From positions 1 through 31,638 of the forward strand of contig JAYNIA010000029.1 of the NCBI GenBank assembly GCA_038108555.1: 31,638 nt of DNA, given 5' to 3'. The notes beneath the pieces were generated by a model. That model saw only the letters and a list, made by a program, of their open reading frames with translations, was not told where the DNA came from and ran no database searches. Both the position numbers and the translations under genes were made by a program. Shown in pieces: positions 23,026 to 27,941 of the stretch (positions within the stretch are counted from its first letter, which is position 1; every line of letters starts with the position of its first letter). This DNA comes from Nitrospinota bacterium (GTDB lineage: Bacteria; Nitrospinota; Nitrospinia; Nitrospinales; VA-1).

Positions 23026-23409
23026 ATGAGCGAAATTCTCGGGGCCACCGGCTCGACTTCACCTATCAATCCCATCCGCAAAAAAGAGCTGGATGATAAA
23101 TGGAAAACCATCGTTACAAAAGCAGTAACCGATGAACAATTTAAAAAGCAACTGGTCGGCGACCCCATGAAAATTATCGAAGAGCAGGGTTTGAAACCGG
23201 CTGAAGGTGTAAAAGTTGCTTTCGATGAATTGACCCAAACCCATAAAGTAGGTGTCGACGCCGATGCCAACGAAGAACTGACTGCAGAAGGCAAGTGGTG
23301 GGGCATTCGTCTGAAAATGATCAAAGAGTTTGGGGTGGAACTCGATCGGCAGGTGGGTAATGTTGCCGGTTTTGAAGAAGGCACTAAAGCCAGAAGCATC
23401 ATCAACTAA
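23026..23409 (+). CDS. Small protein with nitrile-hydratase-leader-peptide (NHLP)-like domain
   Basis: [36 protein letters not shown] matches the NHLP/NHase-alpha leader pattern (A..D..F...L..DP......G); AGGA RBS. Confidence 0.7.
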
Positions 23410-23413
23410 AAAT

Positions 23414-23490
23414 GCGCCCGTAGCTCAGCTGGATAGAGTGGCGGTTTCCGGTACCGTAGGTCGGAGGTTCGAATCCTCTCGGGCGTGCCA
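23414..23490 (+). tRNA. tRNA-Arg(CCG)
   Basis: 77 nt; acceptor GCGCCCG/CGGGCGT, D-arm AGCTCAGCTGGATAGAGT, anticodon stem GCGGT/ACCGT with loop TT-CCG-GT, GGTTCGAATCC T-arm, encoded CCA. Confidence 0.97.
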
Positions 23491-27306: not shown

Positions 27307-27609
27307 ATGAATAAAGGAGTAGTTTTACTGGGAGCGATACTGGCACTTTTTTTTTTAACTTCATGCGCCTCAAACGGAACAGTGGTTCCAAAAGCTTTTC
27401 CAGGCTCTGCGGAAATGTTCAAAGTAAACGATCTGGGTACTGTTGAAGTCAAAGGATTTGACATGAAAGACCAGCCCATGCATTGGGTTTTTGTTCGCTG
27501 CGATTACTGGAGTGGCTGCTACATGCGTTGTCAAGGACCGGTAAATACCTGTAAGGAAATTGCGACCAAATCGGATTTGGAAGTCAGTTACGTTCAGAGC
27601 ACCCACTAG
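27307..27609 (+). CDS. Small Cys-rich lipoprotein
   Basis: GGGGAG RBS; lipobox LTS-C; four further Cys (CX5CX3CX6C); TGCTATAAT extended -10 at 27230-27238. Confidence 0.8.
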   Translation: MNKGVVLLGAILALFFLTSCASNGTVVPKAFPGSAEMFKVNDLGTVEVKGFDMKDQPMHWVFVRCDYWSGCYMRCQGPVNTCKEIATKSDLEVSYVQSTH

Positions 27610-27643
27610 TTTCCGGGTAAGAGTGAATCTTCAAAATACTATT

Positions 27644-27672
27644 TTGACATTCGCTATAAATTAAGTCATTCT
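27644..27672 (+). promoter_or_regulatory. Sigma70-type promoter for the small structured transcript
   Basis: TTGACA (27644-27649), 17 nt, CATTCT (27667-27672). Confidence 0.5.
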
Positions 27673-27678
27673 TACGAG

Positions 27679-27860
27679 TGCGTTGCCCGATGGGCTTAAC
27701 AGGGAAGCCCATGGGGTGTTGATGGATACCCTGAGAAGGAGGTGATCCCATGCTATCTGACAGTATTAGGGGAGCTTCCGGAGTAATTTGTTAACGCCAA
27801 GTTAACGGGAGCTCCTGTGCTTCTATAGCGCCCCACTTTAAATAGTGGGGCGTTTTTTTT
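27679..27860 (+). ncRNA. Candidate structured small RNA / mini-mRNA containing a 13-nt complement of the 16S 3' end and a 14-codon ORF (27750-27794)
   Basis: GC-richer island between a promoter and a terminator; hairpins ATGGGCTT/AAGCCCAT and GGAGCTTCCG/CGGGAGCTCC; AAGGAGGTGATCC at 27736-27748. The 5' end is estimated. Confidence 0.6.
27828..27860 (+). terminator. Intrinsic terminator
   Basis: GCGCCCCACT-ttaaat-AGTGGGGCGT followed by a T tract. Confidence 0.92.
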
Positions 27861-27941
27861 GAACTCCTTCTTGCCTGCAACGGGCAGATTTATACTATAT
27901 AATTACCCTTTCAAAATTCTCTCTTAGATCAAAAGCAATAA

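Follow-up and report, generated by a model that had tools for sequence, protein, structure and literature searches.

The window analysed here, a stretch of 31,638 nucleotides from a bacterium of the phylum Nitrospinota (contig JAYNIA010000029.1 of assembly GCA_038108555.1), carries on its forward strand, at positions 27678-27861, a small RNA unit of about 185 nucleotides. It is present in one copy in the 2.9-Mb genome, where no paralogue was found. A sigma-70-type promoter precedes it, with the -35 box TTGACA at 27644-27649 and, after 17 nucleotides, the -10 box CATTCT at 27667-27672, from which transcription is predicted to start around 27677-27680. An initial annotation of this DNA had put the promoter at the right position, but CATTCT is a weak -10 box that agrees with the consensus at 3 of 6 positions, and the promoter is absent from the list of a consensus scanner. 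Support for the call comes from the homologs, in which the -35 box is conserved at a set distance: TT[GT]AC lies 85-115 nucleotides upstream of the Shine-Dalgarno element (SD) in 143 of 216 homologs versus 10 of 215 control windows. A perfect inverted repeat with 8-bp arms around one base (27631-27647) overlaps the -35 box; within the genus it is only partly kept, and it could be the site of a regulator.

The transcript begins with a hairpin, P1, whose arms (27685-27697 and 27705-27717), supported by covariation, enclose a loop at 27698-27704. The initial annotation had recognized this hairpin (27690-27697/27705-27712) but missed that the loop sequence CAGGG (27700-27704) pairs with CCCTG (27729-27733), 3 nucleotides upstream of AGGAGG, to form the second stem of a pseudoknot, the pairing of which is conserved. 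An extended SD sequence follows (27735-27748), which can form 13 Watson-Crick pairs (27736-27748) and one G-U pair (27735) with the 3' tail of 16S rRNA, then a single C and the ATG (27750) of a micro-ORF of 14 codons, MLSDSIRGASGVIC (27750-27794), with a conserved frame and the stop codon TAA at 27792-27794. A further hairpin, P3 (27770-27816), consists of a lower stem, 27770-27780/27806-27816, which opens at codon 7-8, and an upper stem that, in the consensus fold, pairs 27784-27790 with 27798-27804 and leaves the stop codon in the loop. This register replaces the one proposed initially, in which the two GTTAAC sequences paired with each other. The unit closes with an intrinsic terminator (27827-27861, stem 27827-27854 and U-tract), indicated by terminator prediction and by compensatory changes. 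The 13-mer, the C, the ATG, the long stem and the terminator all lie where they had been annotated. On sequence grounds, the RNA is a real, free-standing, conserved transcription unit with its own promoter and terminator.

The flanking genes are common to the loci within the genus and change beyond it. Throughout the genus, an mscS-like gene lies 3' of the RNA on the same strand; outside the genus, the RNA is flanked by unrelated Pfam families and the downstream genes are often convergent (SnoaL, CBS, Lhr, RF3). Directly upstream, a gene of 100 amino acids (27307-27609), kept in 12 loci of the genus, has an N-terminus that looks lipoprotein-like by eye and has no Pfam or NCBIfam match. Elsewhere in the window, an ORF of 127 amino acids (23026-23409), directly followed by a tRNA-Arg(CCG) gene (23414-23490), has a sub-cut-off likeness to NHLP-leader RiPP precursors (TIGR03793, E 5e-8).

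All four marine metatranscriptome runs examined contained contigs on 27634-27863, and one contig of 152 nucleotides ends at 27860, in the U-tract. This is weak evidence of the transcript, since the runs had been picked for containing the stretch, the contigs derive from relatives, and in three of the four runs contigs extend beyond the promoter or the terminator. Contigs are, moreover, uninformative about transcript ends, strand and level. None of the 24 sequencing runs listed (19 of them RNA) contained half of the query words, and the 20 runs beyond these four count as evidence neither way.

Complementarity to the 16S rRNA tail and the upstream pseudoknot

The 13-mer at 27736-27748 occurs once in the 2.9-Mb genome, with 0.065 copies expected. 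The assembly does not include the organism's own 16S gene; in 4 of the 5 relatives searched, this gene ends with GGATCACCTCCTTTCT, whence the count of 13 Watson-Crick pairs and one G-U pair for the window RNA. These 14 contiguous pairs end at 27748, one C before the start codon. The exceptional length of the complement, already remarked upon in the initial annotation, is borne out at the scale of the genome: the duplex has an energy of -26.1 kcal/mol, as against -22.8 kcal/mol for the best of 2716 ORF starts. Across 226 homologs the contiguous pairing spans 12-17 bp, a range to be read knowing that the central part of the complement was demanded by the search pattern; variants of the SD mostly yield G-U pairs, and the start position is fixed 7 nucleotides downstream of AGGAGG. 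A remnant of a 16S gene on the opposite strand was considered and rejected, as the match stops after GATCC and the genome gave no SSU match.

The region folds with a z-score of -5.55, none of 200 shuffles equalling the native fold, and RNAalifold selected the CAGGG/CCCTG helix unprompted. Among 21 close homologs (equal-length rows picked from 32), 10 of the 12 pairs of P1 vary on both sides, and 94% of the cells are paired. The covariance-model alignment of 89 sequences, which is fitted to the model and leans toward the pseudoknot structure, has 99.3% of the cells of the pseudoknot helix paired, versus 32-70% in slid controls; 4 of 5 pairs show both-side change, the double changes amounting to only 7 among 444 cells. 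To guard against circularity, metagenomes were scanned with a pattern devoid of the knot, which gave at least 120 rows and 115 distinct hits, 5 of which were dropped because upstream sequence was missing. Among the matches listed, the knot test was passed by 105 of the 110 remaining hits, versus 178 of 1100 shuffles. Two of the 105 (L171 and L271) are chance-like, and three members failed through the script picking another helix. At one locus, L164, the downstream part is kept and the knot loop is absent. In the consensus fold, compensatory changes are also found in the upper stem of P3 and in the terminator, the lower stem of P3 being nearly invariant. In three loci (L014, L015, L374), inserts that contain additional hairpins separate P1 from the partner strand; the knot pairing is intact.

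What the knot might do is suggested by computed folds that lack it. The CCCUG strand then pairs with the SD about 50% of the time in the window RNA, and a local hairpin covering the SD forms in 136 of 181 homologs; the knotted and the SD-covering folds have similar computed energies. Because CCCUG would otherwise fold onto the SD, the knot plausibly keeps the SD open. This open/closed switch may be incidental, since a C-rich strand beside a G-rich SD pairs in silico anyway.

By BLAST, the RNA is present in 27 of 41 genomes, its own included; the covariance model detected it, nearly always as a single copy, in 68 of 76 further genomes from the order and in none of 15 genomes from other orders of its class. 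The closest named homologs are labelled Nitrospina, Nitrospinaceae or Nitrospinota. Genome G013 has two copies (L002 and L028) on separate contigs with similar neighbours, possibly from strain mixing in the bin. A scan of the genome collection with a knot plus SD pattern gave at least 120 matches, 87 of which also have a downstream stem resembling GGAGC[CT]TCC, a feature that was absent from the pattern and served as a filter; of the 33 of 120 that failed it, inspection by eye assigns about 10 to the family, the others being chance-like (among the matches listed). Again among the matches listed, the records are labelled Gammaproteobacteria (SAR86, Pseudohongiella, Azotimanducaceae), KSB1, Calditrichota, Bacteroidetes, Cytophagia, Chlorobiota, Fibrobacteres and Lentisphaerae; these labels are titles of MAG records, in which lone contigs are possibly misbinned.

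Beyond the order, the distribution is patchy, as judged by searches with strict filters and with a model whose training covered few lineages. The RNA was found in 18 of 61 genomes of the phylum of G612, in 11 of 41 genomes of the family of G044 (two of the 11 being weak and knot-less), in 3 of 151 genomes of a gammaproteobacterial sample, the centre genome counted, and in 6 of 151 genomes of the phylum of G043, the centre counted and one (L352) being chance-like. In the phylum of G608, 3 of 151 genomes gave weak partial matches that were judged to be chance, and none was convincing. Plasmids gave no match by blastn; viral contigs gave two matches to the knot pattern, both chance matches in coding sequence, and none to a knot-independent pattern. 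Four divergent loci (L113, L128, L102 and L122), in records labelled SAR86, Gemmatimonadales and Kiritimatiellaeota, combine a knot-like leader and an SD with another downstream part and score 26-32 bits against the model.

A micro-ORF of fixed position and length

The micro-ORF is kept in all 27 order-level loci that have the motif in range. It starts with ATG in 14 and TTG in 13, stops with TAA in 21 and TGA in 6, and counts 14 or 15 codons, the changes in length being of whole codons. Among the distant matches listed, the frame opens one base past GAUCC in 84 of 87 homologs, the start codons over all 87 being ATC (41), ATT (16), ATG (14), TTG (7), GTG (4) and ATA (3); all three stop codons are used, and an ORF of 13-15 codons is found in 85 of 87 and in 101 of 105 homologs in two scans. 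The tallies of start codon and length were taken outside a subset prefiltered for a middle T and 12-16 codons. The other two frames are without a fixed length in distant homologs. Thus the comparison with relatives upholds the complement, the stems and the start position as conserved features but not AUG itself, most homologs having AUC, AUU or UUG. In the genus of the window, an AUG start occurs together with the knot, indicating that the link between the knot and a poor start is not strict. Initiation on codons of this kind is familiar from the infC gene, the autoregulation of which relies on an AUU or AUA start gated by IF3. By eye, at five loci, infC itself apparently starts with ATT in G000, G018 and G612, and probably with ATA in G043, which indicates that such codons are usable as starts in lineages that carry the RNA.

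Conservation of this sort might mean that the micropeptide is the functional product, the knot, the extended SD and the poor start merely throttling its amount. In the N-terminal, unpaired half of the ORF (73 pairs, transition bias left in), pN/pS is 0.52, while the shifted frames give 1.23 and 0.79 (naive Fisher p = 0.002), and serine is retained through both of its codon boxes, three codons before GAS (TCT 72, AGT 53) as well as at codon 3 (AGT 110, TCT 23). Together with the tight length, the pN/pS contrast and the retention of serine offer a modest hint of selection on the peptide. Against this, the pN/pS ratio is uncorrected and the changes counted are 72 amino-acid and 32 silent. Moreover, conservation of the best-kept residues, GAS, resides in the nucleotides: their codons, which make up the base of P3, show 2 synonymous changes in 218 sites, a constraint that therefore acts on the RNA. 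Two homologs, L127 and L129, have a one-base frame shift within the ORF and yet, by eye, a stop near the usual place. Finally, the available text on the related RNAs rreB and rreR, presented below, describes their peptides as unstructured, with presumed overproduction without effect (PMC5711450). We therefore consider it unlikely that the peptide is what the RNA is for. What is most strictly kept, as far as sequence comparison can tell, is the act of translation, that is, the position of the start, the length of the frame and the stop in the loop of P3.

Relation to known RNA families

At the gathering score, Rfam has a tRNA as its sole match in the window and no match in 20 distant loci; in E-value mode, there are 16 sub-threshold matches, most of them over the terminator. 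6S RNA (RF00013), which the initial annotation had cited as an example of a known family to be looked for, has no match at the locus, and the genome's 6S RNA lies elsewhere (contig C2, 86.8 bits). A tmRNA was likewise rejected, ARAGORN finding none in the window and one elsewhere in the genome. CC2171 (RF01867, cut-off 75 bits) has no match in G000 at E 1; its score is 23 bits for the homolog in G018, 22-30 bits for six loci of the pattern scan, and 82 bits for one rre-type locus fetched. Ms_IGR-5 (RF02471, cut-off 45 bits) has no match at the locus even at E 1, one match elsewhere in G000 (13.9 bits), and none in G043 or G044. The initial statement that this is not a recognised named family thus holds in that no Rfam match reaches cut-off, but the kind of RNA is known: rreB/rreR, CC2171 and Ms_IGR-5 share with it an extended SD and a micro-ORF.

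The closest likeness is to rreB and rreR. In the portions of the report by Hahn et al. that we could draw on, rreB is an RNA of 165 nucleotides with a 17-nucleotide 16S complement and a GTG-initiated ORF of 14 codons, which co-sediments with 30S subunits and is weakly translated; removal of the start codon lengthens its half-life from 10 to 37 min (PMC5711450). It is far scarcer than ribosomes, and its 20-fold overproduction leaves growth unchanged (PMC5711450). Like rreB and rreR as described there, the RNAs of the knot family are stand-alone, of 165-185 nucleotides, in a context that is not conserved, and have AGGAGGUGAUCC, one base and then the start codon, 7 nucleotides past AGGAGG, as well as a structured 3' part and a terminator (PMC5711450). 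The 14-codon ORF is common to rreB, and so, often, is its UCU second codon. The leader differs, with about 29 nucleotides in rreB (PMC5711450) versus 60 nucleotides with a pseudoknot. The rre class was defined by at least 16 nucleotides of 16S complementarity that take in the start codon's first base (PMC5711450). There are 14 pairs in the window RNA and 16-17 pairs in 30 of 226 homologs. A conserved small ORF does open 7 nucleotides past AGGAGG; the leader is not short as in rre, the -35 box being 91-115 nucleotides upstream of the SD and a pseudoknot lying between them.

Among 201 alphaproteobacterial genomes searched, 29 contained rre-type loci, 30 in all, and many of these loci have -35 candidates about 51-54 nucleotides upstream of the SD. 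Their ORFs count 18-56 codons, versus the fixed 13-15 of the knot family, and against model R1 rre RNAs score at most 26 bits versus 42-110 bits for members. Unlike rre RNAs, the knot family has mostly AUC, AUU or UUG starts, the GGAGC[CU]UCC stem, and a pairing that ends one base before the start. The Streptomyces member of Ms_IGR-5 resembles it by a 5'-proximal, extended and wobble-containing 16S complement, a 12-codon ORF and long stems, and differs by an SD without leader or pseudoknot, a longer spacing and an AUG start.

Other parallels are found in ordinary mRNAs. In the rpsU mRNA of Flavobacteriales, a 13-bp SD-ASD helix was seen in a real 70S initiation complex, where it excludes bS21 (PMC13000457); such a helix can thus read the composition of the ribosome. 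The rpsU case differs in that a ribosomal protein gene is regulated in cis, from an AUG start and, in the part of the report at hand, with no pseudoknot described; its helix extends as far as U1541 and U1544, at the 3' tip, while the extension in the knot family runs toward the start codon (PMC13000457). The tisB mRNA has a 5' pseudoknot that, in the available account, binds S1 and the 30S subunit and helps loading (PMC7708055). Both infC and tisB are parts of ordinary protein-coding mRNAs and lack the combination of extended SD and micro-ORF as a free RNA. In three genomes of a genus from another order of the same class (g22; L400, L401, L422), rpsP (bS16), the protein having been identified for L400, starts with GTG past an extended, wobble-containing 16S complement, with one base between them, a spacing as in the knot RNA. 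By analogy with the rpsU gene of Flavobacteria, this is possibly an SD-based autoregulation.

Knot-less RNAs of the rre type were also found in 16 gammaproteobacterial genomes, in the family of G044 (L407-L420, L425, L427), with a -35 box about 55 nucleotides before the SD, an ATG or GTG start, and ORFs that open with MSS[DG] or similar and count 23-33 codons in 15 of 16; the rre report, in its accessible part, deals with Alphaproteobacteria only (PMC5711450). In this family, 8 of 40 genomes have strong model matches, which are of the knot form (7 were fetched, all starting with AUC), and 16 of the 32 genomes without a strong match carry the knot-less ATG/GTG form. None of six knot-form genomes checked also carries the knot-less one, which suggests one job done in two ways. 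The two forms have no neighbour in common, so that synteny makes no case for their common descent. The literature searched, mostly open-access, contained no description of a pseudoknot-bearing family. In sum, the rre-like kind of RNA is already known, and the pseudoknot leader and non-cognate starts set this family apart from the examples examined.

Possible roles on the 30S subunit

The initial annotation had proposed a dedicated RNA that pairs with the 16S tail and contains a micro-ORF. Conservation supports this, but the idea of a bulk ribosome decoy appears doubtful in view of the harmless overproduction of rreB mentioned above (PMC5711450). The RNA would rather be a trans-acting, stand-alone mini-mRNA: it would dock on the 30S subunit, and its translation would be slow and conditional. 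The pseudoknot would occupy the C-rich strand that otherwise folds onto the SD, leaving the SD open, and may also contact the 30S platform or bind S1, as in tisB. The subunit would be held tightly, through the whole single-stranded 16S tail. With a start codon that is usually AUC, AUU, AUA or UUG, and a helix within one or two bases of it, initiation should be slow; since the helix is so close to the start and the codon mostly non-cognate, as in infC, it may depend on the level of IF3 and on the state of the 30S subunit. An initiating ribosome covers roughly 15 nucleotides, and P3 begins about 21 nucleotides into the frame, just past this footprint. The ribosome would meet P3 after a few codons, unwind it, terminate and be released, the output being a little Ser-rich peptide, turnover of the RNA, or both. 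Conditional initiation followed by release would make the RNA a sensor of initiation capacity rather than a bulk sink. In the available part of one study, extended start-proximal SDs aid non-canonical starts, and IF3 modulates such starts (PMC13009471). The steps that take place on the ribosome are all deduced from the architecture of the RNA and from its analogues. On these grounds, it is very probable that the RNA binds the 30S subunit and is weakly translated; that its purpose is to sense the state of initiation is a serious possibility, which we hold at somewhat less than even.

A related view is that the RNA stores or shields 30S subunits, covering the 16S tail, holding idle subunits during slow growth and blocking 3' exonucleases, with translation of the ORF serving for release. 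The duplex spans essentially the entire free tail (12-17 bp), nearly all genomes of the order have the RNA, in a single copy, it was assembled in all four preselected metatranscriptomes with little or no cover of the flanking genes, and hibernation factors are reported to oppose RNase R (PMC8406268). All five carriers checked already have genes for the HPF/RaiA family and for bS21, however, so that the RNA replaces no missing protein, and the scarcity of rreB relative to ribosomes, like its harmlessness when overproduced (PMC5711450), speaks against storage in bulk; we find this role distinctly unlikely. The RNA could also be a base-pairing sRNA, or a sponge for CU-rich sRNAs or SD-binding proteins, with an incidental ORF, as its sRNA-like size, own terminator and variable neighbours would allow; this is very improbable, as the match runs on into GAUCC, a sequence peculiar to the 16S tail, and as the start position, frame and stop, needless for a sponge, are kept across phyla. 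A cis-acting leader-peptide attenuator or riboswitch for the downstream gene, brought to mind by the short ORF, the overlapping stem, the terminator and the same-strand mscS-like gene of the genus, is scarcely credible, no riboswitch family matching and the unrelated, often convergent downstream genes beyond the genus excluding a leader role.

To return to the mini-mRNA that docks on the 30S subunit, its widest version would have the family consist of purpose-built 30S ligands, in which the pseudoknot and the full-tail SD helix hold the subunit on AUC, AUU or AUA, and escape into the 14-codon frame needs scarce IF3 or an altered platform (bS21, S1, maturation of the tail). Taken as a whole this is tentative and, we think, rather unlikely. 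If true, it would amount to an RNA-based initiation checkpoint or hibernation device in nitrite oxidisers, marine Gammaproteobacteria, KSB1 and others, of which rre/CC2171 would be the knot-less counterpart.

To our knowledge, the rre class has been without an assigned function since 2016. The family presented here adds constraints that can be tested: a covarying pseudoknot at a set distance from the SD, natural starts on AUC, AUU and AUA that resemble the one of infC, an ORF of constant length, and a stop codon placed within the loop of a hairpin. It is a near-universal, single-copy RNA, invisible to Rfam at cut-off, in an order that, judging from its named homologs, is one of marine nitrite oxidisers. 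If the RNA holds or samples 30S subunits, slow-growing bacteria would have a further, new level at which translation is controlled, and cryo-EM of initiation on non-cognate codons would have a natural substrate.
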